Shown here piece by piece: positions 1 through 64,000 of a stretch of 64,000 nucleotides of DNA. Position numbers and translations under genes: made by a program. The stretch covers positions 11,040,761-11,104,760 of the forward strand of contig NC_081383.1 in the NCBI RefSeq assembly GCF_030684315.1, in the 5' to 3' direction. The first letter of the stretch is position 1. Every line of letters begins with the position of its first letter. The notes beneath the pieces are model-generated. The model saw nothing but the letters and a program-made list of their open reading frames with translations, was not told the DNA's origin and searched no databases. The DNA is from Stegostoma tigrinum. Its lineage: Eukaryota.

Positions 1-1004
1 CATCAGGTCAAGCAGCATCAGAAATAATTAATGTTTCACATTGAATACATTTGACCTTTATATGTGTCTATATTTGACCATTTATCACTTCCTTTTGCAT
101 TGCATCATTATCATCATGTTTGGTATTTAATCATTCCTGGCCTCCAACCACTTTGTTCCTATTTCAGACAACAGACTTGATTTGAATCTTTTCATCTCTA
201 ACAACTTGCATTTCCGAAGAAAGGTCATTGCTTTGAAACTGTAACCGTTCATCTCTCCACAGGTTCTGCCTGATGGGTGTTCTCAGCATTTTCTCTTTTT
301 AATTCCACTGGTGACACTGGCTGGGCCAACTAACTGCTATATTTAAATGGCCTGGTTTAAAATCTATATCTGTACAACAATATCAAGAGAACTTAAAAAA
401 ATCATGAATTTATTCATCTTTAGTCAACTCTTCTTTATGCATTGTCAGTAATCCTCAATGAGTTTTACGGAAACAATATAAATTCCTAATTAATATAGAA
501 GTTAAATAAATATTCACACTTAATCAAACAGACATTATTGATTGTGTTAACACTAAAATCGATGACATAAATTCTCTGTATTGACCTGCACAGTGATTGG
601 TATTAATACCTAAAAGGGGTTTGGTTGGGTCAGCTGACTGGGCAGCTGGTTTGCAATGCAAAGTTATGCAGTGTTGGGTCACATTTGCATTGGCTGAGGT
701 TATCATGAAGGACTCTTCTTCATAAGGTCTCCCTTCATCTGAAGCATGGTGACCCTCAGGTTAAACCACCACCAGTTGTCTCATTCCAATGTTGGAGCAG
801 CTCAATGAAAATTTTACCTATTAACCCATTAAGGACTGGGAATTAAGGATCTTGGAAGCACTTGGCAGATGTCATTAAAACAATGGATAGAAAATTAGCT
901 AACTAATAGAAGTCACAAACAAAAATTGCTAGAAAAGCTCAGTACCTGTAGAAAGAAATCAGAGTTAATGTTTCAAGTCCAATGACCCTTCCTTCTGACG
1001 AGGC

Positions 1005-4300: not shown

Positions 4301-5899
4301 ATGAAAAGGTATTATTAATTTGCATTTATGAGTGCCCCCTTTCTCTTTCATCACCTATGCAAATGAATATAGTCGCTGCTGATATCTCAAAAGTGGTGTC
4401 CTTAACCATTGGGACCTTGTTTTGTATGTCACTATGCAACTGACTATCCCCTATCTCTTTGGCAGAGAAGGAAATTAAATTTAGTTTTATAGAATCCATT
4501 TTAGATTCACCATCGAATTACTCAAGGATCAAAGTTCCAGGCAAATATACTACATGCTTTTAATACAAGAATAAACATTACTAGTTCAAGCAGCGAGGGA
4601 ACAGATTTTTGACGTCCCTTGCAATGTCAACAATTCAGAGGATCTTGTCCATAAGGAATGTCATTTAGGCAAACTCATATGCAGCTATGATTGAAGCACA
4701 AAAGAGGCAAAGAGCAATCTAATTTGTCTTATTAAAGACATTCTAGAAAAAAATTAACCTCTAATTTGTCCAATAACAAAGGAAAAATTATTTTCTAATT
4801 TCAGTCACAGTATTTGAAGGAATCTTGAAAATCATTTGAAGCACTTGTCAATTTGTATCTTTTAAATCACTCTCTCAGCCCCTTTCTCTACATTTTTCTT
4901 TGAATTTCTGCAAACTAAATACAAATAAATAAGTGCATTGCCTGTTCAATGATTTCACTTCCAGCATAGATTGTTCTTTGGTGACACTGCTTGCTTGCTC
5001 GCTCGCTTTCTCTCTCTCTCCCCCCTCAGCAGCAGCCATGTACTCCCGAAAGTTCACTCCAAACTGGAGATTTGCAAGGAACCAGCACATTCTTGTTCCT
5101 GGGCCTCAGACTTTCAACTCTTTTGTGGCTGCAATGATTCGTGACTTGACTGAGGTTGCTCCAAAGGGGCCCAGGGCCATCACTCAAAACATTCCTGATA
5201 ATAATCCTAAAACTGTCTTCTGTCAGTTGCCTTATCTTTATTCACTTAGATATGCAGCATCATCCTGGGGTCTAAACCAAATGAATAACAACAAAATACA
5301 TTTATTTTACACATTTAATTTGTCTTGTTCATTTGAGGCTGCTGTACTTGTAATGAACAACATGGTAATAAAACATCTTCTCGTTGCTCCACAATGACAT
5401 CAAACAAAATTTCACTTGCAATCACATAAGATATCAGGACAGATGAAGAAGGGTCTCAAGCCAAAACATCAATTTTCCTGCTCCTCTCATGCTGCCTGGC
5501 TTGCTGTGTTCCTTCAGCTCCACACTGTACTATCTCTGAGGACAGATAACTAAACGTTTTTTAAAATTATGTAGGTTTACAGAGCACCTGAAGGAAGGAG
5601 AGTTTAGAGAAATTCAAAGAGAGAATTTCTAAGTTGAGGTAATTCTCCCTACCCAGTGTTCAGGACTATGTTGCCTGAAAAGGAGCTGGAAGCAAATTCA
5701 ACAGGCAAGTTTCAAAAGGGGAACAAAAACCAAAGGTGAATTAATGGAGACACCATGGCCTGAATGGCCACCTGAATTCTTTAATTGCCAATTAGGGTCA
5801 CACAATAAAGATTCAAGCTGGGGCAGGCAAATTAACAACAAACTAAGTGAAATAAAAATAGGAAAATGACAATTAAATCATTAGGTTGGAATCTCAGAT

Positions 5900-8614: not shown

Positions 8615-8900
8615 AAATCCAAAGGACTGCGGTAGCTGCAAATCAAACAAAAACCGAAGTTGCTGGAAAAGCTCAGCAGGCCTGGCAACATCTTTTGAAG
8701 AGAAATCAAAAGTTAACGTGTCGGGTTACCATCCGTTCTGAGGAACGATCAACGGTCCGGAAACGTTAACTTTTGATTTCTCTTCACAGACGGTGCCAGG
8801 CCTGCTGGGCTTTTCCGCCAATTATGGCCTTGGCATCCAAAATGTTAACTCTTATTTTCTCCTTGCGGATGCTGAGTTTTTCCAGCGTTTGCAGTTTTTT
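8615..8900. mobile_element. Penelope-derived hairpin element with degenerate hammerhead core
   Basis: Inverted arms (gctggaaaagctcagcaggcctggca... / ...tgccaggcctgctgggcttttcc) around CTGAGGA...GAAACGTTA. Confidence 0.7.
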
Positions 8901-12118: not shown

Positions 12119-12296
12119 GTGAGTTTCCAATTGATTTTTCTCAAACAGTTTAAATAGTTATTTCTAAGTTTTCTGATCCTTGAACCATCTACAAACAATT
12201 AAAAGAACAATTTAAAAATCAGTTTGATATTACAGTTCTTCAGCTATTAATCATGTTCCTGCAAGTTATTTGTGTATACGGTTTTGGAGTAGATCT

Positions 12297-12916
12297 GTAG
12301 TTCGGGTTGTGGGTGTTGAGATTGGTTGGCTTGCCGAGCTGGTTTGTTGTTCCACAGATGTTTTGTTACCAAGTACGGTAACATCCTCAGTGCAGCCTCT
12401 GATGAAGCGGTGTGTTTTTTCGCCTGGATTTTTAAACTCGGGCCTTTTGCGATGGTTTGCCTCTCTTCCAGGTTTCCTTTGTAGTGGAATGTATAGGTGG
12501 TTGGAGTTCAATGTGTTTAATAGTAGCCTGCTAATAATAGCCTGTTAGTACACCAACTGGCTACAAAAAGACATGACAAATACTCATCTCAATGCACATT
12601 GACAAGGAGAACCATGACTTCGACTGGGACAGCACCAAGATCCTGGGACAGGCTAGGCAAAGACAAGAAGAGAATTCCTGGAAGCGTGGTACTCCACAAA
12701 GCAGGCTATTATTAAACACATTGAACTCTGACCCCGTATACATTCCATTACGGAGGAATCCTGGAACAGAGGCAATCCATTGCAATGGACCCCACAGTTT
12801 AAAAACCCAGGCAAAAAAATGCACCGCTTCATAAGAGGCTGCACTGAGGATGTTACCAAGTATGGTAACGAAAAGCGTGCGGAGCAACAAGTCAGCTCGG
12901 TGAGCAACCAACCTCG
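12297..12916. mobile_element. Penelope-like element: GIY-YIG C-terminal fragment between inverted pseudo-LTR arms
   Basis: Arms 12300-12532 and 12700-12916 are inverted copies. The centre encodes ..HIDKENHDFDWDSTKILGQARQRQ.. Hammerhead-like core CTGAGGA-tgttacc/ggtaac-GAAA at 12844-12873. Confidence 0.85.
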
Positions 12917-13189
12917 AGTGTAGTTTAAAAATTCAGTTAGTAGTTTTGACTTTGTATTTCCCTCTCCTATTTCTAAATCGTTCTACATTGCACTCATTAT
13001 ACAGATTGTTGCATTTTTAAGGCCAGGCCGAGTTTTGAAGTTTCAAATTGACGTGTAACCATCTGTCTCCTTCAGACAAGCTCACTTGGCAAGGGCAATG
13101 AGGATTAAGCAGTTGTTGCTTGTTGAGTAGATGATTGTTTTAAAGCAATGGAGCTTTTAAAACCAATTATATAAATTGACTAGTGGTTC

Positions 13190-16039: not shown

Positions 16040-16680
16040 TTGCCTCTTGCTATTTTAAACTCAAGCAGATATAAGCTTGGCCTATTCAACCTTTCCTCAT
16101 AAGACAACGTGTCCTATTTAGATATTAGAGAGATAGTAGGAACTGCTGATGCTAGAGAATCTGAGACAACAAAGTGTAGAGTTGGATGAACACAGCAGGG
16201 TAAGCAGCATCAGAGGAGCAGGAAAGCTGACGTTTTGGTTTGGGACCCGAAACATCAGCTTGCCTGCTGTGTTCATCCTGCTCTACACCTTGTAGCCTCG
16301 CAATCTAGATATTAGTTTGGTAAACTTTTAAACCTCTTCAGTGCATTTGTATTCTTTAAATAAGGTGACTAGTATTGTACACCCTATTCCATATGTGGAC
16401 TCAACTGTACTCTTATAATAAGCAAGACATACAATTTCCTTCGCAATAAGTTATGTATAAGATGCTAATATTCTATTAACTTTGCTAATTACTTGATCCA
16501 CCTTCATTCAAGCTACCTGCAATTCATGCAGAAAGACGTCCAGATCCCTTGGCTTTTCAGAGCTCTACAATCTTAACGTTCAGATAACATGCTTCTTTGT
16601 TTATTTTTCCTGCTAAAATGGACGACCTCATATTTTCCAACATTTTGATGTATTTTTCAGTTATTTGCCCACTTGCTTAG
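16040..16680 (-). mobile_element. CR1-like LINE fragment interrupted by a hairpin element (16129-16305)
   Basis: Antisense CR1 motifs. The nested insert is flanked by the direct repeat TAGATATTAG (16119-16128 / 16306-16315). Confidence 0.7.
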
Positions 16681-21421: not shown

Positions 21422-21585
21422 NNNNNNNNNNNNNNNNNNNNNNNNNNNNNNNNNNNNNNNNNNNNNNNNNNNNNNNNNNNNNNNNNNNNNNNNNNNNNNN
21501 NNNNNNNNNNNNNNNNNNNNNNNNNNNNNNNNNNNNNNNNNNNNNNNNNNNNNNNNNNNNNNNNNNNNNNNNNNNNNNNNNNNNN
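21422..21585. other. DAZAP1: Assembly gap (164 N), probably hiding DAZAP1 exon 7 (RRM2 RNP1)
   Basis: Exon 6 ends in phase 1 and exon 8 starts in phase 0. The GFGFITF... segment was not found elsewhere in 16944-24477. A branch-point-like CCCTAAT (21395) and a pyrimidine tract run straight into the gap. Confidence 0.8.
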
Positions 21586-24634: not shown

Positions 24635-25976
24635 GTAAATGGGTTAATCATTCAAAGAGATAACCAAGAATGTGATTAAGGTGGTGTGCTTCTCCATTTT
24701 ATGTGTCATGTAAATTTTTCTGAAATTGCATTATTGAGTTCTAGAATTGCTTTCTACCTGCAAATTTGTGGTTAATCTGTTTTGGATACCTTCTTAAACA
24801 AATGTGTTGGTGAAGTACATACCACTAGCATTCTTCAGCAGCAGTATTGACTGTAACAATTGACATGCTCAGTACCATTCAGCAGACATACTCATGCATG
24901 CTACAAACTGCTGCTTTTCTGCCTCTGAACCTGTTTGCAGGATTTTTGAAGCCTCCTGTAATGGCCTTGCATGATTTGATACAGTTGGTGTTTCTGCCTG
25001 AGTTAGAACGTCTATTTGTGCTTGTTCCAAAATTTGAGTGGCATTCCAGTACAGTGTTCAATGTTTCCTGCATTGCTGTAGGAACCAGTGACCCAAAATA
25101 GACCTTGGACTAAATTGTTGCAGTTAATACCTTGATCCTGGATGCTATTGGTGAGCCTACATTCTGTCAGACTAGTGAGATTACCTTGTTTCTAGATGTA
25201 TCCTAATCAACTCATTCAAAGGTGTTTTATTACATATGTCTGGACCACTTAGGACTTAAGCCCACCCCTCCTGGCTCAGGATGGATGCTACCATTGGACT
25301 TCATGGGCCCCCTAAGATTAGCTTGGGTTTTTTCACAGAAGGGAAGACTGGCACGATTTGCTCCTGGGCTTAGAATAGGTTGAAATGAACTCAGAATTAT
25401 CAGAGACTTTAGGTGTCATTTGCTGACAGATACAGGATACATTTTAATCTTGATAAGCACAATCAGAGAGTATTAGGGAAGCGGGAAATGGAAAAGGCCC
25501 TTAATTCTGACGGTTTTTCCTGTCTGTCACCAAAGATGTTTAATGTCTGAATTATCCAATATTGTACGTGCAATTTTTAAAATCGGAAATAATTAAATGT
25601 CTGGTTTCTTTTATAATGCTAACAAATCTGACAAAGTGAGCATTGTTTAAGGTACTTTGCAAATGAGAGGTGGGAAGAGTGCCTTTTGTGTTGCCCACTT
25701 AATTCTTTTACATAGATGAGTGAGGTGTCAAAAAAGGCATAAAGTAACTTGAGCTATTTCATGCATCCTGTTGCTGTTGTGCTTCAAGACATTGTGATTC
25801 AGCTCAGACACAATTGCTTTAGGATATTCTAAATCAGATTATCTAGATGAGTGTTTGTGAATTGGCATAATAATAAACTTTCTAAAACACTGCAGGTTAC
25901 AACTTTTATTTTGAACCTTTTTGAGGAGTGATTGTAAATGAAGGTAGGCTTGCTTTAACTGTTGTATGTTTTTCAG

Positions 25977-30479: not shown

Positions 30480-31720
30480 CTGCCAATGATGTGGGCGGGG
30501 GGTGCTCGTGATGCATTGGGGTGGACAAATAACACTGGAGGACACCGGGTTATTGTGCACCTGGTTGATCTGAAATCGCAAACCTTCATAGCATTGCCCT
30601 TTTGACAGGTGACATGAGAGAGAAGGACACAGACTTTATAGGCAGACAGATCGGAAGGCAGCCTTGGAGGCGCTTACCTGAGGATCAGAAGCTGAATGTC
30701 CTTCATTGTTGGAAGTGTTCCCCCAACTGCAAGGGAGTATTCCTGTCTGGCGATTGTTGCATGGTGTTCATTCATCTGCTGTCGTAGCATCTGCACAGTC
30801 TCACCAGTATACCATGACTCGAGGCATCCTTGCCTGCAGCGTGAGATAGACAACACTGGTTAAGTCACATGAACGTCTGCAGTGTACGTGATGAGTGGTG
30901 TTTCTGTGTGTGATGGTGGTATCAATGCTGATGGTCTGACCTATCTTGAGGTTGCCGTGGCAAGCTTGTGTGGTGTTGTGGTTGATGTTCTGAAGGCTGG
31001 GTAATTTACTGTGAATGATGCTCTGTTTTACTGGTTGTTTCAAGGCGAGAAATGGAAGTGTAGGGATGATCTTGATGAGATGCTCTGTATCATCGATATG
31101 TTGAAGGCTGTAAAGAACATGGCATAGTCTCGTCACTCTGGAGCAGTACTGTGACTAAGCATCCTCCAAGGCAGCTTTCTAAGATACACCACAATGCAGA
31201 ATTGCTGAGCAAAATCTGATAGCTGAGTTCGGTACCCATGATGACTGCTTCAACCTTGATCTTGGGTACATGTCGATTAAATTCTGTATCTGTAAAATCT
31301 TTACTGTCCAGTTGAGGCCATTACCTTGATAAATGTGATCTCTACCTGTAATTGGTTTATACAGTTTTAATTACTTATTACTTGGATAATAACAACTCCT
31401 ATCACAATTATGTTATTCTAGTCATTTGGTTTGTCTCCAGCACCTTTTTATATTTTGTAGTTATCTCTGCCTCATTTAGTTGGCTTATAGGTCACATCTT
31501 GGCATGTTAGTCAGCTGTTGATACTTGCACTGTCTGACACTTTATCACCTGTAGAAACCTGCTATTTGACACTTCACTCAGCATTTATATGATCTTGCTG
31601 CTCTTCATCTCTCTGCCTATCAATCTTCTGTGCTTTTTGCTACTTCACGGACAAAGGGCCTACGCTATAAAAGCCTGTGATTTTGAATAAACCTGTTGGG
31701 ACTATAATCTGGTGTTCTCT
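30480..31720. mobile_element. Penelope-like element with internal inversion (GIY-YIG on -, 3' pLTR on +)
   Basis: The - strand encodes SCDLTSVVYL..C..GC....YTGETVQMLRQQMNEH (GIY-YIG). From ~31155 the + strand continues the element to the aataaacctgttgg.actataa.ctggtg end. Confidence 0.8.
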
Positions 31721-33715: not shown

Positions 33716-33773
33716 ATAGCAAGGTCTTGTCGGTTGCATGTAGGTTATTATCAGCCATCTCCAGTCCCATTAA

Positions 33774-33953
33774 GAGATAGTAAGAACTGCTGATGCTGGA
33801 GTCGGATATAATTGGAGTTGGAGGAACATAGCAGGCCAGGCAGCATCAGAGGAGCAGGAAGCTGGTGTTTCAGATCAGGACCCGAAACACCATCTTTTCT
33901 GATCCTCTGATACTGCCTGGCCTGCTATGTTCCTCCAGCTCCACACTGTGTTA
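33774..33953. mobile_element. Hairpin Penelope-derived short element
   Basis: Inverted arms, flanked by TCCA(G/A)TCCCATTAA direct repeat (33760-33773 / 33954-33967). Confidence 0.8.
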
Positions 33954-35569
33954 TCCAATCCCATTAAACTGTGTTGGGTGTAAGTCATTCTCAATTTTGA
34001 AGGACTGTCAAAGTGAGGAGATCTAATTTACAAAATAAAAGTATTTTTTTAAAGGAAATATTCTAAAATCCTCATGTTACTTCCCTGGTTTCATATTTGG
34101 GGATAATTTCTAGTTTTTTACATTAGTTCTAGTTCTCATTTTCTTTAAACCCACTCTTCAATGCACAAACATTTAATTCTTAAGTTTCCAATTTTAATCT
34201 ATTTATTCATACAAACATATACAACACAACCCTTCTCTACACTCTACTTCCTCAGTGGTAATTTGTAACTTTTCCAAATCCGGTTTATGTATTTCCCCTT
34301 ATTATTCTTTGGTTCTGCTCACCATATTTTCTTTCCATTTAATCTGAGCAAGGTCATGTTTTATCTCTCTAATTAGCCACTCCCAAGTATGGTTCCTTTC
34401 AACTTTCCTGATCCTATGCTGAACCTACTTATGCGATTATCTCTCAAATGCCATTCTGCCTTTATGTTTTTATTTTACTACTAAATTTGTGTATTTCCAA
34501 CTTTTTTCAATGTTTTGTTCAGAGCTATAATTGCATTTGTGTCATGCTTTCAGTATAATAAAGCAACTCAGGGTGCTTCCAGGCAGTTTCATAATGCGGA
34601 ATCTGATGCTGAGCCTTATTGGGCAATAAAGAACCACATATGCTGGAAATCTGAAACAAAACTTGTTGGGCCAAAGGGGCCTGTTTCCACACTGTAGGGA
34701 ATCTAATCTAATCTTAAAAACAAAATTGCTGGTGAACTCAGCCGGTCTGGCAGCATCTGTGGGAAGAAGGCAGACTTAACGTTTCGACTCCAGTAACTGT
34801 CAGTTCTGAAGAAGATACAGTCAGAAATTTCAGTCCTGATCAGGCAATATTAGGGTAGATGACCAAAAGCTTGGGTCAGGCTTTTATGTGACGGAAGGGT
34901 AGAAAGAAAGAATGGTGGAAAGTGTTATGGCTGGAATTTCTGAACTTAACCTTGGGTCTTTATTTGTATTTTGGTTCTTTTCCCCAAACTGGACCCTGCA
35001 GAGTAGACAAGTAGTAAGCACAAAAAAAAAGAGGCAACTTGATGCAATACAAGACGTGAAGCAAATGTGACTTCCATAAGCGCAGCTCATCGTTGGATGG
35101 ATATCTCATCTTGAAGGAGCATAAAGAAGCATTTAAGACACATCATTGTTGAAAATTGGGCACTTGATGAGTACCTTTGTTCAGAAGGGAATTTTTTAAA
35201 CATTTAAATAAGTTTAGATTTTACTTATGTTTTGTTTTAGATGTTGGCATGTAAGTTGACCTGAAAAATCCCTCCAAGAATGGTTGATATGTATGCCAAG
35301 TATAAAAATGAACTTGCAGCATAAATATCGCTCAGCATTTTGAAATGTCAACAGCATCCAATGCTAAGAGCGGGCATGCCCATCCTTGGCAACGCTGCTC
35401 CTCGTGCCTACTTGATCACTTGTGCCCAACTATAAGGTATGTTTAACATACGTTTGCAGGAGGGAAAAATGATTCTGATTGATAGGTATAGCATGTTAAG
35501 CCTGAATAGATAATTTTAAGCAACCAGTTCAGACATGTATGACACATTCCTGGAGCAGGTGGGATGAGG

Positions 35570-35907: not shown

Positions 35908-36170
35908 TGAATCCTAGCCTTCTAACCCAGAGGTAGAGACACTACCACTGTGGCACATGAGCCCTTATGAATATTTTCTCATCGTTCTGTTGGGAATTGT
36001 AGGAGCAAATTACTGCAGATGCTGGAATCTGTACTGAAAACAATAAGTGCTGAGACTGCAGCGGGTCAGGCAGCAGCCATGGAGAGAGAGCAAGCTAACG
36101 TTTTGAGTCTAGATGACTCTTCATCTGAGCTGAAGTGACATTTGTAGGGGACTCCATTTATGCTATAGTT

Positions 36171-36321
36171 AGCACATGCACAGTGGCCCAGTATTCGCTG
36201 CCTTGGCCAAAATCCCATGATATTTGCTGCAGGGGAAACGAGATCTGTCTTTTCCAGAGACAGCAAGTGAACATGGTGGGTTGATGTAGATGGTGGACTT
36301 GAGAGAATCCACTATAAACCC
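36171..36321 (+). repeat. Diverged duplicate of the RPS15 core promoter/exon 1 (source 37563-37712)
   Basis: Colinear with the real promoter (shared GATATTTGCTGCAG, GGAAACGAGATCTGTCTTTTCCAG and GTGAACATGGTGGGTTG), with CpG>TpG/CpA changes. Confidence 0.92.
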
Positions 36322-36857
36322 AATAGAGTACAGTGGAAGAAAAGATGTTGATAGTTCAGATTAAGTGATCGAAATGTGAGAATGGCAGAACAATGGTGTG
36401 TTTAACTGCCAGATTTGAAATAACAGTTCCAATGGGGTGGGGAGCAAGGATCTGAGAATGTAACGATGAAAGCGAAAAGAAAGGGAGGAATGGGTGTTGG
36501 TGCATAATTTGCAGGTGTTGAATTCAATATTAGGTCTAGGAGGCTGTAAAGTGCCTAGTCTGAAGATGAGATGTCATTCTTCCAGTTTGTGCAGATTCAC
36601 TGGACTATTGTTATTGCATGTTTCTAGAGCAGGTGGAATTTGAAACCGATCTTCTGGTTCAGAGTTGGGGGCACTACCACGCCTCCAAATGAACCTTTAG
36701 AGTCCCAATTTTATGGTTAGTGTAGATTTTCTTTAAATCAACATACTGAAGATGTGTTAAGACAATATGTAGGGAAGGTATGACTTGAAGCTGGGCCTCC
36801 TGACCCACCGATAGGGACATTATCATTGCACCACGAGAACCCTAAAAGTCCTTTTAT

Positions 36858-36952
36858 TGAGATAACAAAGTGTAGAACTGGATGAACACAGCAGGCCAAG
36901 CAGCATCTTAGGAGCACAAAAGCTGATGTTTCAGGCCTAGACCCTTCTTCAG
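36858..36952 (-). mobile_element. Monomeric hammerhead-bearing short element
   Basis: Reverse complement CTGAAGA-AGG gtctagg CCT-GAAAC ATC AG. Flanked by AAAAGT(C/G)CTTTTAT direct repeats (36844 / 36953). Confidence 0.75.
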
Positions 36953-37300
36953 AAAAGTGCTTTTATATACTGGATCAATACACTGTGGATCTGGAGGAAC
37001 ACATTAGGTCAGACAGCATCAGAGGAACAGGAAAGTCAATGTTTCCATAAGACCATCAGACATCAGAGCAAAAATTAGGGTATTTGGTCCATTGAGTCTG
37101 CTCTACCATTCAATCATGGCTGATAAATTCCTCAACCCCATTCTCCTGCTTTCTCCCTGTGACTCTTGATCACCTTCATCAGAACTGGGTACGTGCAATA
37201 ATATGATTAATGAAACGAATAAATGAAACCATGTCTATCTATAGACTAAATAAAAAAAACAGAAATTGCTGGAAAAGTTCAACAGATCTGAGGATTAACT

Positions 37301-37330
37301 CTGATGAAGGGTCTGGGCCTGAAACGTCAG
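37301..37330 (+). ncRNA. Minimal hammerhead-ribozyme motif, intact core
   Basis: CTGATGA AGG-gtctggg-CCT GAAAC GTC AG: CUGANGA, stem II, GAAA, palindromic ACGT stem III and GUC cleavage triplet. The element is flanked by the 12-nt repeat GATTAACTCTGA (37293 / 37419). Confidence 0.7.
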
Positions 37331-37544
37331 CTTTTGTGCTCCTAAGATGCTGCTTGTCCTGCTGTGTTCATCCAGTTCTACACTTTGTTATCTTGGATTC
37401 TCCAGCATTCGCAGTTCCGATTAACTCTGACTCCTCTCCACAGATGCTGCCAGACCTGACGACCTTTTCCAGCAACTGCTAGGTTTTTATTTGTTTTATG
37501 ATTTACAGCTTCCGCAGTTCTTTCAAACTCAGCAACATTACAGC

Positions 37545-38050
37545 CAGCCGCCTTGCCAGATACGCGCATGCGCAGTGTCCCAGTAGTCGCCGCCCGGACT
37601 AAATCCCGCGATATTTGCTGCAGCGGAAACGAGATCTGTCTTTTCCAGGGAGACCGGGTGAACATGGTGGGTTGTTGTAGATGGTCGGGCTGAGAGGCTT
37701 TACTACAATCCCTTTCCATCCGCCCCCTGATTAATAGCGGAACCTCCGTATCGACAATGATATTGTACAACGGAGTCCGTGACCATAGTGTAGACTCATT
37801 ATCTTTTTGAAAAACAATTTGTATCAATCGAACGGGATGCGGGTGTCTGCGGGCCTCGGGCTGCTTCATAACGTTTGAATTATTAACCCTGGAGTAGGCT
37901 TATTTTTAGTTAAAGTTGGTGCCTCTTTAGTGTGGGTGATGGCGCGGGCTGGGCTGGGGTCTTTAAAGCTCGGTGTCATAGCGTTATTTAAGTTTGTGGA
38001 GTTAAGTCTCCGAGGCTTGGGGTTTCCTCAAGGCAGCATCGAACGGCCAA
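37545..38050 (+). promoter_or_regulatory. RPS15: RPS15 CpG-rich promoter with NRF1 palindrome and TOP-like tract
   Basis: GCGCATGCGC at 37564-37573. Pyrimidine tract CTTTTCC at 37640-37646, typical of ribosomal-protein TSSs. Local CpG enrichment. Confidence 0.85.
37664..37666 (+). CDS. RPS15: RPS15 exon 1 coding part (ATG only)
   Basis: AACATG|GTGGGT donor following the TOP tract. Vertebrate RPS15 exon 1 contributes only the Met, and exon 2 starts in phase 0. Confidence 0.88.
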
Positions 38051-38379
38051 CACTGTTCACCCCTGTTCCTGTGGGGATCTTATATGTCATTTAAAGAAAT
38101 ACAACTGAATTATCAACATTAGCAAACTGCTAAAGAGTGTGAAAATTGATTGCACGGCCTTTTGAACAGAACCCCTTTCGAAGCATCAAACATTTTTTAA
38201 GCAAAGAAAATGTGATAGCTGAAAGGTTTCCATTAGGTGTATTTTACAACACATGATTTACTAATTCCGTTTTAAAAATGAGGACTGTCCCTATGTTCCA
38301 ACAATACTTCACATAATATGTCTTAAGCTTATGTATTTGTTGCAGTTTTTTTTATTTTTATGATTTTTTTTAAACATAG

Positions 38380-38469
<90 letters not shown>

Positions 38470-38754
38470 TAAGTTGCATTGTGTTAAGTAATAACTTGTG
38501 TTGTACCAGATGTATACAGTACAGAGGAATGATCTGTGGCTATGTTTTTGACGTTAAGACTACAATTTGATTAGTTGATTTATTTCTGCTTTTTGGCTTG
38601 AAATATGAGGGAAGGTGGACTGCCACAGTATCTGTTGACATACTGCAGCCCGTCTTTGGTTCAATTTGTTGTTGGTGTGTGTGCCTCAGCACAGTGAAAA
38701 GTTGTGTTTTGTGTGCAGTACAGGCGGATCATAACATATAAGGATATAGATCAT

Positions 38755-38865
38755 CGGGTTTTGAGAAGATTTGTAGCTCAGGTTGAGTTTCTGGATGTGA
38801 GTTTGCTCGCTAAGCTGGAAGGTTAGTTTTCAGATGTTTCGTCACCATTCTAGGTAACATCAATA
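38755..38865 (-). mobile_element. Penelope pLTR fragment with degenerate hammerhead
   Basis: Reverse complement ...gatgttacctagaatggtgacGAAACATCtg..., same family as the 12297-12916 arms. Confidence 0.7.
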
Positions 38866-38939
38866 GGTGTTTAACAGGGCAAGACATACAAGCTTATGGC
38901 TGTGCAAGAGGTTCACAAAAGCAAGATCAGCATTATATT

Positions 38940-39400
38940 TGGAATTGTTTGGAATAGGGAAGAAATTGTTCTTAAACGAGTTGGAAGACAGTATTGCCAG
39001 GGTGGGAGAGTTCTTCAATGTTGGCAGCTTTTCCATGGCAATGAGAAGTATAGATTGAGTCTGCGGATTGGAGCTTGTCTTGTATGATTGTCTGGGCTGT
39101 GTATGTAACTTGCTGTAGTTTCTTGCCGTTCCAGGCAGAACAGTTGCTGTACCAAGCTGTTATGCGCTGAAATGGGATGCTTTCTATGGTGCATCTTTAA
39201 AAGTTGGTGAGGATCTGTGTGGACATGCCGAATTTCCTAAGCTGTCTGAGGAAGAACACGTGTTGTGCCATCTTGACCGTTGCATCTATGTGGGAAGTCC
39301 AAGGCAGATTTGGTGGTTATTGTCACTCTTAGGAACTTGATGCTCTCGACCCCTTCCACTTCACCTCCATTGATGTAGAGAGGGATGTGTCCTCCATCCT
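38940..39400 (-). mobile_element. Rex1/Babar-type LINE 3' fragment
   Basis: Reverse frames read FFLRQLRKFGMSTQILTNF*RCTIESI and ITAWYSNCSAWNGKKLQ, typical of Rex-Babar ORF2 C-termini. Confidence 0.75.
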
Positions 39401-40837
39401 CCCTTTGAACTACCATGTGAAACTTTAAACTTTTACCAAAAGAGATTGCAGGTATTTGTGTAAAATATCACTTCTTTTAAACAACAGCATTTTGAAGCAC
39501 TTCATAACCAATGACTTTTGAAGCATCATAATGTTGAAATAATAGTTCATTTGTGTCCAGTATGCTGTCAGCTTTCACAATGTGACAGTAATAAAGGAGA
39601 AGAAATGGCATTCTTTTTCTTTAAAAGAACATTTTGGGTGCTTTCACATCCAAAGCAGACTCCTTTTAAATTATCAACTGAAAGATAGCTCCTTCAGCAG
39701 TGCAGCCCACCTTCAGAATGTCAACCGTGGATATTTTGCATTGGACTGGTATTTGAATGCAGAAACGTGAGATTTAGGCCAAAGTGCTGTCACCTGAGCC
39801 ACAAGTGACATAATAAGAGCACTCTTATTAATAAGTATAGATATTTTTTTAATTAGCCTGCTAAGAGACATCTGTTGAATGGGACTTGAACTCAAATCTT
39901 TTTGCCTGGAGGTAGGGATACTACCATTGTGCCATAAGGGCCCTTATTAATGCAAGTGTATGTAGAGAGGTAAGTGCAGTTACCAGTCAACAAGTAGAAC
40001 TGTTGGCTATCAGATTTGGTAATCACAGGGTCTGAGGTTCCATAGTAGATGGAGCAGGGAATATTAGCGCCAGTTGAAAAGTAAAATAAGCTGGTATTCA
40101 TTGTTGTGAATGGAATTTTGTGCACTTTTATGAGGTTATATTGATCAGGAATAATCTTGGATGTATGCTAAGTATAGCATGCTTGTATCTTCCCCAGTCA
40201 TTGCTGTGCCACAGTGAGTTCACAGTTTTGAAGTTTCAGCAGTGTTTTATCACTCACCCCCAAAACATTGCCTTAATGGTTGATCAGGGATCCCCATTGG
40301 TCACAATTTCTTATGTTGGACCTGCCTGGATACATCCAGGGTGTGACATGACAGACTGAAAACCCACCACCTTGATCAAGGCCAGAAAGAGAATATGGTC
40401 GAGTTGAAGCTATGCTGGGCCTTGTTTTTATATGTACGTTTTTACTTTTCACCAGAGAATGGAAACCTTGGATATGTGTGGAGTTACACCCTTTTTCTCT
40501 GACTTGAGCACCACCTGCCACCTTTGTTCTTCTCATTGACTGCAAGAATGATGGAAAGACCTTGATTGAAGGGCAGTAATTTGCACACAAGATCCTGCAA
40601 ATAGTAAACATTTGAAAGATGTCAAAACAATTAGATCACATCTGAATTTCAAACTGGGACTACAACCAACAAATTTGTTTCCAGTGAGTGCTGCCATCTG
40701 ATCCCATCGCTTGCAGCATGCATTCATTCAAAGATGTAATATGGTCTAGTTTTAAAATGGTTCAGCTTTCAGAAATGCAATCCTATTGCAAACTCCATTA
40801 AATCTAAATTAATCAGCCTGTTGAGAATTTTCAATGA

Positions 40838-41098
<261 letters not shown>

Positions 41099-42469
41099 TG
41101 AATTCGCTGCTGAATTCCGTTTTCATTGGCAGCTTTCTAAAAGATATTTTGACATAGGCAGAATGCAATATTGAAAGCTGTTCACAAGATCATGTGCTGC
41201 TTTAGTTGGCTGCTTCAATTTTCCAATTCAGATAGATCAGCATGCTTTTTGTTTCTTCTGTGGGTATATTTCATTTACTGTTGCTGCTAATAGGTAATGT
41301 GCGAATAAGTAATTTTGGACATTGCCTTTGGGGACAGTGCTGTAATCGTACAATGGAATTCTACAGCAAAGAAACGGGATATTTGGTTCATTTTCCTTAT
41401 GCTGATGAGACAGTTTGACCTGTTTTGCCTTTGCTAGCTATTCAGGGGAGCTTCCTAATTAATCTCATTCTCCTTTTCCATTTTAGAAATTTGAGTATTT
41501 TTTACAATGGTGAATCCTACTGTGCTGCATCCTGCTAGGATAAAGGAGGCTGAGCAGCCTGGATGAAAAAGAGAGGAGTGTGTTTCAGTATTTTTGAGTT
41601 GAGAGAAATGTTGCCAAAGCTTTTCATCTCATATTAGCCAAAATAAATGTGTGAATACCAAATTTCAAACAATTGCAACAGCGTAAAGTACATGAGAAAA
41701 GGGTGCTAAATGGTCGCAGTGTTGCTATTGTGAAACAACGATTGCCCTGTCAAAATCCTGGGTAATTCTGAAGAGGTGCGATGTGTATCTGTATTCTGTT
41801 GCTCTATAAATGATGCGCCGACCCTTGGATGATTACTTGAGATGGCAAACATAAATAGTCTGTTTTGCAAAAGGTCATAGACAGAATCTTAACATTCCCA
41901 CATTACCAAATACTAGCACTAGAAGTTAAAATTTGCCCACGGTTTTTTGTTAGAAAGAGATCTTGTGCTAAGTTTTCTGGAAGGATGTTTCAATTTTCCA
42001 TTGCATTAGTCACTGCAGAACCTTCATCTCCAACAGATGGAATGAACTTTCTACCTCTGAGGCCACCATCCTCAGTTGGCTCAGATATTATGTATCTGGG
42101 ATGGCTTTCCCAAACTGAAAATAATTTCAAATCGTTCAAACTGCTTGCTGCTAAGTTCTGAGCACTACATACACTTCATTCATTTTTGCAACGTGATAGG
42201 TTAACGGTAACTTTGACCCCCTTAAATTCTGCCTGCACAGATTGAAGCAGATCAAATTTTAAGTTACGAAGGAGGCATTGGTGAGTGCTACTGTTGCTGG
42301 ACTGGTAGTTTAGAGACGAGTGCCCTGGGGCTGTTTGCTAAAGTCTCACTTTTGCAAACGGTGACATTTGAATATAAGTAATTAAACTGGAATGAGAACT
42401 AGTCTATAGATAATAAAATATGAGGCTGGATGAACACAGCAGGTCAAGCAGCATCTCAGGAGCACAAAA

Positions 42470-42503
42470 GCTGACGTTTCGGGCCTAGACCCTTCATCAG
42501 AGC
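42470..42503 (-). ncRNA. Minimal hammerhead-ribozyme motif, intact core with 3-bp stem I
   Basis: Reverse complement GCT CTGATGA A GGG-tctagg-CCC GAAAC GTC AGC, within a short element at ~42408-42505. Confidence 0.7.
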
Positions 42504-42639
42504 ATTTCTAATGATTTTGAAATCCCTGTCTGAGGCACTGTTCATTTAGTGAGGGGAAAAGCTACCATCATGTGGTCTCATCGGTAAGTGATTCAGGTCC
42601 ACAGTGTAATGTGTTTTGCCTCTTAATTGCCAGTGTTTG

Positions 42640-45270
42640 AAAGGATTGAAACTGGGTGGACCACTCAGCATTGACCCAAGTCACTGGAAATGACAGCAGC
42701 GCACAGACCTGCCGACCTTGTAAGCCCTCACTAATGTGTAGAGGTTTGTGCCTGCTAATGCTTTTCTCAGGCTTGTACCTAACAATGCCCCAGACTCAGC
42801 CATTGTCATCCCTGGCAGGTCATACCCACCAGAGATGGTGGCAGTGTGGTATACAGCCTGGAAGGGAGTTGTCCTTGGAGTCCTCAACATGACTGTGCAC
42901 CTTATCATATCTCATGCTATCAGGTTAGACCAGGGCAGGGAAATCCACTGCTCTCTCTCAGTGGATGAATCATCGTGCCTACATTTTGAACAACCCACAA
43001 AGAATCCTCGGGGTAGCAAGAAGTTCATTACCAAGAGTGAATCGGGAGGACCACTGCTGTCTAAACTGGGATAGTCTTAAAGGACATAAAATGTAGGAGC
43101 AGAACCAGGCCTTTTTGCCAATCCAGTATACTCCACTGATAATTGAAATCATGGCTAATCTGATGATCTGTATCTTTTCTCCATCACTCTTGACTGCCTC
43201 ATCAAAATTGTGTCTATCTCAGCCTTGAATGTACTTAATACTCCAGCCTCTACAGCCCTCTGTGGTAAAGATTCTGCCAATTTTTTGGAAAGTTCCCATT
43301 TCCCTAATTTTATATTTTATCCCAAAGGAAATGGAGACCAACGTTCCATTTATTTTCCCTATTTTATCTACTAAATTTGTATGAAGCTTAAAAAGCTTGC
43401 ATAGATGAGGACTCACAAATCCCTTATGTCAATATTTGAAAAGGAAGGAGACAGTAAACTGGTACCTGTATGCTAGTTAGCTTAATGTCCGTTATCAGAC
43501 TTTACCAGAATCCAAGGATTCTCGGGAAGATTACTGCCAATGCATCCGCTGTCTGTGTAGCTGCGACTTTTATTAGCCTGGGAAGCATCCCATAGCTGCT
43601 TGACTGGGTTTGCAGCAGGTGGTGAGGGAACCAACAAAGACAAGACTTGTTTTACCCTGTCCTTTCCCATCTACCTGACACACATGTCTGCCCATGATGA
43701 TATTGGTAGATGGATGCCACACAGTTCTTGGGGAGACAGAATCCTCCCTTCAAGTTGAAGGTGCCCATCATAGTTTTGTGTCGCATTGCTACCATGCTGA
43801 TTTATTTGTATTTCAAACAGGCATAGCCCAAAATTGATTGACAGTGGTGTTCTGTGGGCCATCAGTGGAATTGTATTCTGTCACATTCTGTAATCTCATA
43901 GGTCAGCAGTTACTTGGCTGATTTGAAGAGATCAGCCCTGGCTCAGTGAAGAGTATAGGAGGGTATACCAGGAATCACCGTCAGTTTGGGGAAGCTATAG
44001 CATGTTAGGCAGTGGATGCAACTTAATGTAAGACAAAGCTAAGTGATCTCACGACCATGGATCAAATCTAAGCTCTGCAGTCCTGCTGCATATTGAGAGT
44101 TAAGAATGGTGGTAGCAAATAAAATAACTCCCTCTGCGAAGAAGACCTTCCACAAATGAGCGCATATTTAATATTGGGAAAGCCTAGCACCCCTAATTGT
44201 AAAAGACAAGTCTGTTTCCAAGTCTGCCTTCATCCAGAGGTGCTGAGTGGTGGGTGACCTATCTTTGGCTCTTCCTGAGGTCCTCTGCACCACAGATGTC
44301 AGTCTTCAGCCAAATCGACTCACTCCACTTGATACAAAATGACTGACGGCACTACTTAGTGCACAGGTTGTGGGCTTTAACAGCAATCCAGAAATTGTTT
44401 TGAAGATTTGTGTTTCAGGTTTAGCTGCAACTTGTGTGGAGCACTTCTAGGATAATTACAGCAGTGGCATCAACCTCTCAGTTTGGGAAGTTGCTCGGTT
44501 ATGGCGGTCTGTCAGTGTTCATTGTCAGCAGTGTGATGGAAGGTGTAATCAACAGTGCTGTCAAGTGTCCTTCCACCATATCCTACTTGCAGATACTCAG
44601 TTTGTGTTTTACCAGGCCCCAATCGGCGGCTTACAGCTTTGGTCCAAATATAGACAAAAGAGTTGGTCTGTAGCGGGGTAGTGACAGTGACTGTATTTGA
44701 CCAAGAGTGGCAATAAGGAGCCCTAGCAAAATGAGTCAGTGGAAATTGGATAAGCTCTGTATTGTTCGGAGTCATACTTAGCAGCGAGGAAAGATGGTTG
44801 TGGTTTTGAAGGTCAGTCATTTCAGCCATAATGTTTCTGCAGGAATTCCTCCAAGGTAGTTTCTGCTTTAATGCCTTAGCTGCTTCAGCTGTTACCTTCC
44901 TAATATCATGACGTCTGAGGTGGTAATGCGGAATAATCAGCAAACAACGTTCCATACTACTTACGATGATTCATATCAGATTGAAGTAGCCTGTTTCCAA
45001 ATCCAGCAAGAGCTGGATAATATTGAGGCTTGGGCTGATGTGTGACATGAAGGTTACTTGTCACTTAAGAGCCAGGCAGTGAACATCTCCAATAAGAGAG
45101 CATTAAACCACCACCTCTTGACATCCAGTGATATTGCCATAGCTGAATCCCCTACTTTTGATATCCACGGGTTACCATTGACCAGAATCTGAACTAGACC
45201 AGTAGTATTCATACTGTGGGTACAGAAGCAGATCAGTGGTTGGGAAATCTGTGTCAAATAACTTAGCTCC
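42640..45270 (+). mobile_element. Degenerate long LINE of a second CR1-clade-like family (EN and RT remnants), with nested antisense CR1 piece at ~43085-43600
   Basis: RT-like ttcctccaaggtagt..., gataatatt.aggcttgggctga and gggttaccattgaccagaa.ctgaact motifs. The same family occurs at 53110-53965 and 59950-60590. Confidence 0.65.
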
Positions 45271-46435: not shown

Positions 46436-46600
<165 letters not shown>

Positions 46601-51111: not shown

Positions 51112-53109
51112 GACTGAACCCTTCTGTAGTTCTATTTAGAGAAAGAAATTTTTTAAAAAAGCAGATTAGCATTGGCATCTCTTTAAGCATTTTTCTGTGT
51201 TACTTTTTGCAAACATTGAAGCCTTCCAATTCAATGTTTTCTACACAATTTAAGGTCAAGTTTGTTCATGCTGCCTAGGGAATTATCATCTGTTTTCTAT
51301 TGATCTAAAATACTTAAAAAATCAAAGCCTAAACTAAACTTCTCCCAGATCTGTTGAATTTTTGCAGCAGGTCAAGCAGCATCTGCGAACGTGTTAACAT
51401 TTTGTGTGAATGAGTCAGAGAGCCAAAAGGGCATAAAGTATGGAGGATATTCATTCCAAAGCTGAAAATCTTAAAATCAAGCTGTTGTTAGACTGGGAAC
51501 AGTTCAGTGATGGGGGTCTGGCCTTGGTAAGAATTTGGGTACAGTTAGTACAAATTTTGATCAGCTCAAAGTGAAATAACATCTGGTGATTCTGAAATTG
51601 AATCTGGCCATTCACAGTGGCAAGGGAGAGGAATAATGAAATAAATAGCTAGGGAATGGGCATTTTTTTTTAACAGAACACAGCCTACTATCTCTGAAAC
51701 AATTTTAACCACACTGCGAAGCCCATTTCTGAAGGAGGATCTAGGACCGAAATGTCAACCAACATGCTGTTTGACCTGCTGTGTTCATCCAGCTCTACAC
51801 CTTGTTGTCATAGAACATAACAGCTCAGCACTTGACATCACAATTTTGAGGAAATTTCTGCTCATCCAAAACCAGATGTCTGAAAAGCAGTGTGATAGGT
51901 TATGGGGAATGAAAAATTTAAGAAAGATGGACTTGAGCTAGAGCTGGATGAGCTTCATGTATTTGTGGAACGTGACATCTCTTGCTGCTTGGGGCAGCAT
52001 GTAAGTGAGAAAAAACTGGTTGGGTGACAAGGAGATGTCCTGGGGAGACTCGAAGTAACAGCATGGAAAGTGGGTAGAAAAGCCACGCTGAACTAAAAAT
52101 AAGATAATTTTGGAAAATAGATGGTTGGGTTTGGAGTTGAAAGTTAATGAAAACAGAAAATACTAGAAATAATAGAGCAGGTTGATGATGTTCAGAGAAA
52201 GAAATGACAAGCATTAACTGAAAGCAAAACATAAAATATCATAGCAACCCACAATCTCAAACAAAAATATTCGGCAGGTCCGCTCTGTAAGAGAAAGACA
52301 ATAGGGGTATCCTTTCAGTTCTGTGATTTTTCATTGAGAGCAAACATCTTTGAGGAAGAAACTGGAACCTAAAATGTTTTCACTCAATTTTGTCAGAGTT
52401 ACCTGGAGTTGTAGTATTCAACATGGAGGATGCAATTTTTCTAATTCTTCACCTAAGCGTTTCCAAAATTCCTTTCAATCCTGTTGACGGTGATTTGGAA
52501 TTAAAGTATTCTTGCTCCTCATAACGTGGACTCTGCGTATCTGCGTGTTTCTCCAGTGACAGGCTTTGTTTAAATGTGAACAAAGTCGAGGCAGTATGTT
52601 TACCTATAAAATGTTCAAATGAGATTATGCAATTCCCAGAATGGGCTGTAGCTTACTGCCACCAACTCTGTCTATAAACTGAAATTAAAAGCAAAATTCA
52701 CTTCCCTGTTTGAGTCTTAAAAATGTCAGTATATGAGTGGATGAAGTGGAAAAATGTTTTCAATTAACTAAGATAACATTTCAGGTAAGATAACTTGAAA
52801 CATAATAGTTGTACCTCAGTATTTGCTGAAGTACAGCATTCTGTTTCCCGTAAAAGACTGTGCTTATAGCAGTTTCATTTTTACTTCTGATGTTCAAAGT
52901 ACCAAACACACTTTTTTTGGTCACAGCTAATGTTTGTTTGGTTGTGTACATTTTATGTCCTGTGCATTATCACCAGCATTTCCAATAATCTCTCCAATAT
53001 TCCTGTCAAGTGAAACTCATTGCACATTCACCTTAGATCACGTATATCTATCAACCTGACTTTGACCCAGCCACACAGAAGGAATGTTGGAAGTGTTTTT
53101 TTTTTCAAA

Positions 53110-57757: not shown

Positions 57758-58798
57758 TGAGATCCTTGCCTGGGGTTGTTAACCTGGGCCAACGGGGAAG
57801 CCCTGGCTGACCAATATAAACAGGAGTTTTAGAATCCTTTCAGTTTAGGGGACTGACTCCAAGCTGGCTGGTCACAGCCAGTGTACTGTGCACGAGTAAA
57901 TAAAGGGGGACTTGGTGATGGAATACCAGCCTCTGTGCAGTTAGTTCAGTGGTGACAAGAGTGGGATCCCATGACTTAACAAAGTTTTGGGAGGTGAGGC
58001 AGCCCTGAGAAACATGTGGATCACCTGAAAGCTGTTACCTCACAAGCAGAACAGGAGCAAAACGTACCTGGTCCCTTAGAACAGCCGGAAGGCTTGTCAG
58101 AAACAATAGGTTCTCCCACTCTGTCTAGTATGGAGGAAACCTCAGAGTCCCAGTTGGATGCAGCCTCGATATCTTTACCACTGGAAGAAGAGGAGGGAAA
58201 TTTCCCAATAGGCTCCGGACACACGAGATGGGCTGCAGTGCAGAACATACCGCTTGTATCGGCATCCAAATCACAGGGCAATAATGTCGCAAGAAAAGCT
58301 ACAAATAACCAGGCCTAAATAACAAACTGTAAAGCCGGATGAACACAGCAGGCCAAGTGGCATCTTAGGAGCAGAAAAGCTGACGTTTCGGACCTAGACC
58401 CTTGATGAAGGGTCTCGGCCCGAAATGTCAGCTTTTCTGCTCCTAAGATGCTGCTTGTCCTGCTGTGTTCATCCAGCTCTACACTTTTGTTATCTCAGAT
58501 TCTCCAGCATCTGCAGTTCCTTTCATCTCTGAAACAATCAGGCCTACATCCCTGAACTTAGTGGGGGGAGGGATGTAGTGATCGGAACCAGGTGGACCTC
58601 ATTGACTGTGAGATCCTTGTCTGGGGTTGTTATACTGGGCCATTCAGGGACCCCCAGGCTGACCAATATAACCAGCGGATTAGAATCTCCTCCATTCAAG
58701 GGACTGGCTCAGAGCTGATTGGCCACAGTCAGTGTTCTGTGCTCAAGTCAATAAAAGGTGACTTAGTGGTGGATACCGGCCTTTGTGCAGTTATTTCA
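57758..58798 (+). mobile_element. Internally deleted Gypsy-like LTR retroelement
   Basis: Direct repeats ~57758-57948 (5'-truncated) and 58574-58798 (TG...CA). PBS-like TGGTGACAAGAGTGGGAT (57950-57967), PPT GGGGGGAGGGA (58563-58573), and integrase-tail-like ..HVDHLKA.. inside. Confidence 0.8.
58321..58531. mobile_element. Hairpin hammerhead-bearing element nested in the LTR element
   Basis: Inverted arms meeting at gacgtttcgg.cctagaccctt/gatgaagggtctcggcccgaaatgtcagc. Imperfect flanking repeat aa.aa.caggccta.at (~58305 / ~58533). Confidence 0.8.
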
Positions 58799-62812: not shown

Positions 62813-64000
62813 ATTATTGCTAATGCTTCTTGTTTAAGTACCTTGGGAAGCGAGGCTATGTTGGCGGTGCAATGTGAATGCAAGTCATTGTTGTTTAAGA
62901 CATAACCTACTGTCAGCAGAGCAAGGAAACTTAAGACCAGAACTGGAGGAGCATTCAGATCTCACAGATTGGAGAGCTGGATAATATAACAGAGATAGCA
63001 TGGAGTGATTACAAAGCAAGGATGAAAATATCAAGTTAAAGTGAAACACTGTGGATGCTGGAAATCTGAAAACAAAGACAGAGACTGCGAGAGAAACTCA
63101 GCAAGTCTGGCAGCATCTGTGAAGAGAGAACCAGAGTTAAAGTTTTAAGTCCAATATGACTTTTTCAGAATTCAAAATGAAAATAACAAAATCTTTATTG
63201 CTATGTCTGAAAGGCTTCGTGCAGAAGATTAAAAGAATATTATGTCTACATTTTAGAAATGTTGCTGTTTAGAATGCTTTAGAGGTCAACGTGAAAAAGA
63301 AACAAGTGAACTAGAGGTGCAAATACTTTCTATGACCACTGGATGGTGCCAATGTTCGCTTTTCTTCAATTCCCAGATCAGTTTTAACTCGAGTGGGACC
63401 AATTAATTATTTTGTAAATCCTCCACTGAAACAGTTAACTTGCTGAATTCTGACCCAACAATTCTGCATTGCTGTCCATGCAAGTATTTTGCCGCCGAAT
63501 AATTACATCATTCTGTTTGCCTGTCCTGCATGGATACATTTCTCAGGCTGTGAATTTATTTGGTCGCAGACTGTTTATTGATGGTGAATGGATTTTGTGT
63601 TTTTATATATTGTGCATGGGCAGTGTCGGATGTAGCACAAATTCTGCCATCTACTGGGGAAGGGAGCACAGTGAGGCAGGAGGGACACTAGGCTGGAGCA
63701 GTAAGAGACGCAAACCTAGCCTACTGCAGGAGTAAGCGAGTCTCCCAGCTGCTGAAGGCAGCCCCTGGCCAGACAATCTTTTATGGGGTTGCTTTGGTTT
63801 CTTTCTTTCCTTCATTCTTCTGTCTTTGGAAATGAGGTAAGGCAGTTGTTCAATATCTTCTGTGCTGAAGTGAGTGTGCTTCTCACTATGTCTGTGGTTC
63901 GCTGTTGTGTATGTATACAGTTAATTAGCAATCGCAAAGAGCTATCTTCCAGGTTATTGCTTCGCTCATGAACAGCGGCACCCAAGGAGAGATGCTGAAG

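Follow-up and report, generated by a model that had tools for sequence, protein, structure and literature searches.

Minimal hammerhead ribozymes dispersed by the thousands have been read as truncated Penelope-like elements (PLEs), which carry them in their pLTRs (PMC4209133; Cervera & De la Pena 2014). PLE insertions are described as having 8-10-bp target-site duplications (TSDs), an optional 31-bp tail and solo pLTRs (Arkhipova 2013, PMC3846280), and TSD, inversion and tail have been published for ordinary PLE insertions (Craig 2021, PMC8557442; Arkhipova 2013, PMC3846280). The PLE protein is reported to cut both strands of its target and to extend them, and two internal starts of reverse transcription on the PLE RNA delimit the tail; in the anole Poseidon assay, uncut RNA was inserted, hammerhead mutants still inserted and 5'-shortened templates yielded shorter products (Frangieh 2024, PMC11167929). 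Drosophila Penelope is reported to have an internal promoter from which transcription starts within the pLTR. Among PLEs, a Cys-rich linker was described for Neptune and is also present in Nematis (Craig 2021, PMC8557442). Vertebrate retrozymes, including those of one chondrichthyan, are reported to derive from pLTRs (Li et al. 2026, bioRxiv 10.64898/2026.07.22.740005), and Penelope-like repeats are reported to be abundant in the whale shark. The present analysis concerns a 64,000-nt stretch of shark DNA (the window), for which an earlier note had proposed an abundant system of short hammerhead-bearing mobile elements.

Hammerhead repeats of the window and the copy at 37293

A search of the window by nhmmer with the copy at 37293-37430 yielded 18 matches at E<1. 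From the 13 sites at which the earlier note had seen the element recur, 12 were recovered by nhmmer; the site near 215 gave no match and was placed by eye. These sites represent two homologous families, A (younger) and B (older), the consensuses of which align over their whole length. Family A accounts for nine insertions with 12 arms in the window (~140 insertions per Mb), its subtypes being 71-95 % identical to the consensus. All public contigs of four out of 24 runs were aligned to the window at an identity of at least 82 %. The copy at 37293 and its surroundings comprise:

37255..37290, minus strand: inverted arm of the host family B element (loose contig ends at 37255 and 37290; runs X5 and X17)
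37293..37304, plus strand: 5' TSD (direct repeat with 37419)
37301..37328, plus strand: minimal type I hammerhead (motif descriptor and folding)
37329..37394, plus strand: family A body, ending at the short 3' end that eight arms of 12 share (offsets +90 to +101)
37395..37418, plus strand: optional 3' extension or tail (~35 nt, reaching into the TSD), found in 4 of 12 arms
37419..37430, plus strand: 3' TSD (direct repeat)
37431..37523, plus strand: forward-oriented arm of the family B host, own hammerhead core lost (comparison with family B and contigs)

The remaining copies are:

5445..5541, plus strand: family A, older subtype, 9-nt TSD (flanking repeat)
16129..16300, both strands: family A, head-to-head, tail on the minus arm only, 10-nt TSD, in a DAZAP1 intron (alignment, flanking repeat)
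33773..33957, both strands: family A, head-to-head, older subtype, tail on the minus arm only, 9-nt TSD (alignment, flanking repeat)
36859..36957, minus strand: family A, ending short, with a 7-nt TSD and an interrupted stem III palindrome (flanking repeat, core folding)
36968..37046, minus strand: family A, older degenerate copy, 93 nt from the 36952 core (alignment)
42408..42503, minus strand: family A, best-preserved core (42500-42473), short at the 3' end and antisense within an intron of RPS15 (nhmmer, descriptor)
51672..51811, plus strand: family A, ~45 nt of tail- or downstream-like sequence before the hammerhead, partial tandem or permuted (by eye; weak match, E 6.6)
58319..58535, both strands: family A, head-to-head, tail on the plus arm only, 8-nt TSD (alignment, flanking repeat)
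214..300, plus strand: probable family B, strongly decayed (by eye; no nhmmer match)
8625..8816, both strands: family B, head-to-head insertion (nhmmer)
34700..34810, minus strand: family B, degenerate (nhmmer)
36012..36134, minus strand: family B, degenerate core (nhmmer)
63048..63175, minus strand: family B, degenerate (nhmmer)

The 138 bases of 37293-37430 are made up of a 126-nt insert and a 12-nt TSD. The direct repeat GATTAACTCTGA at 37293 and 37419 is real and 12 nt long; its last six nucleotides (CTCTGA) match both ends of the insert, and in the 5' TSD they overlap the 5' end of the element and provide the CUGA box. As the bases upstream of the CUGA box are target DNA, the element itself does not contribute the 5' strand of stem I in this copy. 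The insertion target was an older family B copy: in organism D, a complete hammerhead of family B follows upstream of 37420 (508 and 498 contigs, with an agreement of 0.64-0.66), and because the contigs continue into family B there, the direct repeat belongs to the target. The 12-nt repeat was also considered as a terminal redundancy of the element, but this was rejected, since its sequence is that of the family B target. The contigs revealed no empty allele at 37293, the joint 37281-37421 being unlike a clean empty site. In family B at 37419-37445, 63110-63145 and 34750-34785, the bases after the cut resemble (by eye) a branch point, a pyrimidine tract, CAG and then ATG, and may possibly represent a PLE intron acceptor.

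A strict descriptor (CUGANGA, stem II of at least 4 bp, palindromic stem III) detected exactly two sites in the window, 37301(+) and 42500(-), while 195 of 200 dinucleotide shuffles gave no site and five gave one. The other cores are mostly degenerate, as had been noted, and the intact core reported at 42470-42503 was recovered as 42500(-). The core at 37301-37328 (+) reads CTGATGA-A-GGGT/CTGG/GCCT-GAA-ACGT-C; that at 42500-42473 (-) is alike, but with GGGT/CTAG/GCCC as stem II. In the former, CUGAUGA (37301-07) and an extra A (37308) are followed by stem II (37309-20; pairs G-U, G-C, G-C and U-G), GAA (37321-23), the palindrome ACGU (37324-27) and C17 (37328), after which the cut is predicted. 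The PLE-type core (CUGANGA, GAAA, UH, with one extra base before stem II) is present at both sites, and the palindromic 15.1-16.1 segment is ACGU in both, leaving little or no helix III; the assignment to minimal PLE-type hammerheads with stem III reduced to ACGT was correct. Helix I comprises 2-3 contiguous pairs in these two cores versus 6 bp in the canonical hammerhead. At 37301 it has only two, with the upstream strand contributed by target DNA, and the 10.1-11.1 pair closing stem II is G-U, compared with G-C at 42500. The conserved bases at 37301 are complete, but the description of this core as intact was an overstatement in view of these two features. Rfam gave no hammerhead match, either at the gathering threshold (whole window) or in E-value mode (36000-43000).

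Nearest-neighbour models without tertiary contacts, meaningful only as a comparison between copies, gave +3.3 kcal/mol for the modelled active dimer of 37301 and -14.7 for that of 42500. In the predicted monomer fold of the 37301 copy, CUGA pairs with UCAG across the cut site, the modelled pairing probability of CUGA being at least 0.95 in both local folds and, with the widest context, 0.67-0.92. With 89 % identity to the consensus, this copy does not differ from its siblings; it is probably catalytically dead or very weak.

Between families A, B and C (the last described below) the core is kept, and stems I and II differ in sequence yet still pair, as expected if selection acts on active parents. 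Core and body are conserved alike among genomic copies (60/66 vs 317/348), as expected from neutral decay.

Insertion anatomy and lineage-restricted amplification of family A

The longest exact repeats flanking the nine family A insertions, with bounds set by eye, measure 12, 10, 9, 9, 8, 7, 6, 5 and 5 nt. Repeats of at least 8 nt flank five of the nine and repeats of at least 7 nt six, at a chance of 1.7 % per site for at least 8 nt (4969 random controls). Independent insertion, as proposed earlier, is upheld by these values, and the flanking repeats are real; their range is 7-12 nt instead of the 10-17 nt originally given.

Head-to-head inverted arms were found in three of the nine insertions (16129, 33773 and 58319). 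Counted from C3, the 3' ends of eight arms lie at +90 to +101 and those of the other four at +127 to +130, i.e. two ends ~35 nt apart, and in all three inverted insertions the long end (tail) is restricted to one arm. This combination of TSD, inverted arms and tail is the anatomy of PLE insertions. The postulated dependence on a PLE enzyme was supported. At the other end, five of six solo copies start at most 2 nt from C3 in the alignment (the sixth is too decayed to be placed), and none of the 12 arms starts at the cut site (+28). The 150-nt upstream flanks of the solo copies are unrelated, except for the neighbouring 36952/37045 pair. With the 5' ends clustered immediately ahead of CUGA, a defined start of the RNA seems indicated. 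Tandem repeats number zero in the window, and the only same-strand pair of cores within 2 kb has a degenerate partner.

Contigs of run X1 match unique parts of the window with 0-1 differences, and public contigs of the same species show the same element boundaries. Summed contig depths are not copy numbers and are used here only to conclude that the amplification of family A is huge and uneven: they reach 6-23 million in the family A bins of run X1 versus 16-25 at single-copy sites, 0.5-3 million in organism B and ~150-380 in organism D, where family B attains up to 92,600. The claim of a very abundant family was right, and the mass amplification of family A is lineage-restricted.

Among the best 24 of 2747 loose ends in X1, the top ones fall on the short 3' end (36858-60; 1249, 1372 and 1098 contigs; agreement 0.38-0.39), and others lie 3-4 nt upstream of CUGA (36955-56; 747 and 626 contigs; agreement 0.35 and 0.33); agreement of 0.33-0.39 denotes mostly unrelated flanks, clips at both places also arise from the edge of the window's own copy, and sequence shared by copies collapses into few contigs, so that loose-end counts favour unique flanks. 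The consensus behind 36955 opens with a G-rich run, i.e. some copies extend into shared, C-rich upstream sequence.

In nine of the 15 joints listed (of 1077), a forward arm that starts at 37299 is connected to an inverted arm, the length of which varies; where the intervening letters are given, they number 1-5. The same 15 include a go-back joint from 37338 to 37299 (depth 304), which implies that another place in the genome has a 40-nt tandem unit consisting of hardly more than the hammerhead; such a unit would form a natural dimer, with 3 bp in stem I. At 51672-51735 (+), a permuted or partial-tandem junction places tail and downstream-like sequence upstream of the hammerhead (by eye). Together, the go-back joint and the 51672 copy show that some short tandem or permuted forms exist.

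PLE remnants, host genes and promoter duplicate

Coding remnants and the nearest host exon are:

12250..12930, both strands: PLE-like inverted remnant with a family C hammerhead and a frameshifted, endonuclease-like C-terminus; unrelated to family A
30746..31275, both strands: PLE ORF remnant with end of RT, Cys-rich linker and GIY-YIG, internally inverted (protein relatives)
37640..37666, plus strand: predicted RPS15 exon 1 (sequence motifs: TOP-like start, ATG, GT donor)

The earlier note had seen GIY-YIG remnants at ~30700 and 12550. The former was confirmed, since the relatives of 30746-31275 bear RT and include an 881-aa protein (P0049) with RT domain, Cys-rich linker and GIY-YIG-like motif. 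By its linker, which Nematis shares, this remnant was tentatively labelled Neptune. GIY-YIG identity at 12550 is a weak lead (nearest cluster with a family assigned: score 0.83, family on 18 % of members). Neither remnant is linked to family A: 12550 bears a different hammerhead, with two damaged family C cores (12844+ and 12390-), and no family A copy lies within ~2.5 kb of 30746-31275, to which no hammerhead copy is attached. Pattern scans of viral, metagenome and prokaryote genome contigs for an autonomous element with family A sequence gave 0 matches, a search for the P0049 locus in viral contigs gave no relative, and protein searches with the family A open frame and with the 36505-36627 and 12577 fragments found nothing. 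Because these searches returned no autonomous bearer, family A is linked to a coding PLE by its anatomy only.

The segment 36322-36620 (-) is repetitive in all four contig runs. It resembles the C-terminus of a PLE endonuclease followed by a UTR, the putative C-terminus lying at 36505-36600; a profile built from four relatives of the 30.7-kb remnant gave no match there. Across the promoter duplicate described below, the segment may run on into the family B copy at 36134. The 36505 fragment showed no significant link to the sequence that precedes site 215 (7 % of 1963 controls).

DAZAP1 was identified in the window by an RRM match to DAZ-associated protein 1 (E 8e-32). RPS15 was confirmed, with its last exon near 46480-46600; its transcription start was placed by motif, as CTTTTCC at 37640 is followed by ATG/GT at 37664. 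The cut predicted in the 37301 hammerhead lies 312 nt from this putative TOP-like start, matching the ~300 nt of the earlier note. A second copy of the RPS15 promoter with TOP-like start, ATG and GT donor is located at 36166-36321 (+). It is 81 % identical to 37557-37712 and contains two CpG versus 12 in the real promoter. The duplicate is present in organism B contigs, several alleles of which are nearer to the real promoter. If the duplicate were used, the 37301 hammerhead would lie in sense orientation within its first intron; run X6 has no cover over the duplicated exon 1 and is uninformative either way on expression.

Further features of the window are a SNORA13 match above the Rfam gathering score (61.9 bits; 25680-25794, +) within the DAZAP1 span, an apparently divergent or partial connexin-like open frame of 206 aa (50518-51135, -; domain E 1.8e-29), a high-copy repeat with inverted pieces at 37037-37180 (contig depth up to 588,000) adjoining the older family A copy, and an assembly gap of 164 N at 21422-21585.

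Origin of the copies and relation to known systems

The probable origin of these elements is retrotransposition of the end module (pLTR plus ORF start) of an endonuclease-positive PLE, itself probably of Neptune type. TSDs, head-to-head arms, two fixed 3' ends and 5' ends upstream of CUGA, none of them at the cut site, are the direct observations from which this reading proceeds. Judging from published PLE biochemistry, the PLE protein would nick AT-rich DNA, and reverse transcription would begin internally at two sites, ~95 and ~130 nt downstream of the core. Uncut RNA would be copied through the hammerhead, with the RT stopping a few bases beyond, and priming on both target strands would generate the inverted pairs; inserted copies would then decay neutrally. 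Ordinary random 5' truncation would not be expected to leave a 5' end of such sharpness, which counts against the end-module reading. Since Penelope transcription starts inside the pLTR, run-off at the RNA's own 5' end would be a natural cause of the boundary and is the most likely one, next to a strong stop, for which the C-rich upstream tract would be a candidate. The absence of tandem arrays from the window and of any arm starting at the cut site among 12 argues that the copies probably stem from uncut PLE RNA and not from rolling-circle retrozymes.

A less likely explanation, not mutually exclusive with the end-module reading, is that family A is a self-propagating, non-autonomous, SINE-like PLE of ~100-135 nt, in which short masters with an internal promoter just before the hammerhead are copied in trans by a PLE protein binding the 3' part. 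It would account for the sharp 5' and 3' ends, the density of ~140 insertions per Mb, the contrast in depth between X1 and organism D (not copy numbers) and the existence of subtypes 71-95 % identical to the consensus; Penelope is reported to possess an internal promoter, pLTR sequences to suffice for mobilisation in trans (PMC3846280), and non-autonomous PLEs have been described in Chlamydomonas. Against it stand the contigs that run on into shared C-rich upstream sequence and an inverted-arm, tail and TSD anatomy that is that of ordinary PLE insertions. As for the template, full-length PLE RNA is the probable one and short masters a less likely one. Somewhat bolder and quite doubtful is the proposal that family A is a self-propagating ~100-130-nt retroposon, consisting of the bare ribozyme and the RT-loading module of a PLE and transcribed from a few bases before CUGA, which underwent ~10^5 copyings from uncut RNA in one shark lineage, with CUGA/UCAG pairing across the cut site holding the ribozyme off. 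If this were true, the genomic ends would map the PLE RNA 5' end and two internal RT starts in vivo.

Very improbable is a non-LTR retrozyme, the tandem monomers of which would cleave as dimers, circularise and undergo rolling-circle reverse transcription. The palindromic stem III suits dimers, one copy appears permuted (51672, by eye), the 40-nt go-back joint was found in X1, and Li et al. report pLTR-derived retrozymes in one chondrichthyan; yet the window holds no tandem repeat, its single same-strand core pair within 2 kb has a degenerate partner, none of the 12 arms has its start at the cut, head-to-head arms and tail are PLE traits, and retrozymes as described have canonical hammerheads in 150-450-bp tandem units. 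The term retrozyme in the earlier note was therefore not sustained, on account of the missing tandem arrays in the window, the missing canonical helix I and the missing cut-site starts.

That the 37301 hammerhead is kept for a role at RPS15, e.g. cutting read-through RNA from DAZAP1 or from the duplicate promoter (36166-36321), is scarcely credible, for although it is one of only two complete cores in the window, in sense, and sits between the duplicated RPS15 promoter/exon 1 and the real one, its stem I has 2 bp, its closing pair is G-U, its modelled dimer is unfavourable relative to 42500, its CUGA is mostly paired in the folds, its identity to the consensus is that of its siblings, and the duplicate promoter is CpG-depleted. 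With nine family A insertions in 64 kb, the closeness to RPS15 to which the earlier note had drawn attention has no functional support.

For the end-module copies, the nearest described relatives are the minimal hammerheads of PLE pLTRs (PMC4209133), with which family A shares the type I core, the extra base between 9 and 10.1, the palindromic 15.1-16.1 segment and a short stem I, as well as the occurrence of mostly dispersed single motifs and of opposite-strand pairs, 100-700 bp apart in that account. Stem II has 4 bp here versus 7-8 bp in the schistosome families of that paper. A search of two of its supplementary files for shark terms gave no hit, and no discussion of 5' ends clustering at the core was found in its main text. 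A literature search, which did not extend to Dfam or Repbase, brought up no paper on this shark family; Li et al. and Cervera 2020 may already list it in their supplements.

Non-LTR retrozymes (PMC7229834; Li, Clavereau and Pollet, bioRxiv 10.64898/2026.07.22.740005) are likewise described as non-coding, with a type I hammerhead, kinship to pLTRs and dispersed monomers, but here tandem arrays are absent, the ribozyme is minimal instead of canonical, and inverted arms with a tail occur. The SINE-like Sm-alpha/Sj-alpha elements of schistosomes, as reviewed in PMC6765202, are also short dispersed hammerhead repeats; they use Pol III and tandem multimers, whereas no tandem multimers were seen in this window.

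The insertion unit described for endonuclease-positive PLEs consists of a 5'-truncated copy, an adjoining inverted copy, an optional 30-40-bp tail and an 8-10-bp TSD (PMC8557442, PMC3846280, PMC11167929), all four of which are found here, and the putative origin of family A from uncut RNA resembles the anole Poseidon assay (PMC11167929). Unlike such units, family A copies are uniformly tiny and have a defined 5' end, and their autonomous partner was not found. Dispersed truncated PLE hammerhead copies as such have been known since 2014, and as a further instance of this kind family A matters little; what is unusual is that most copies start just before the ribozyme and not at the cut site. The useful part is this geometry: many copies with two fixed 3' ends and a fixed 5' end, none at the cut site, constitute a natural read-out of PLE reverse transcription that agrees with the in vitro result of cleavage being dispensable for insertion, and by which the role of the PLE hammerhead and the start of PLE RNA become testable from one assembly.
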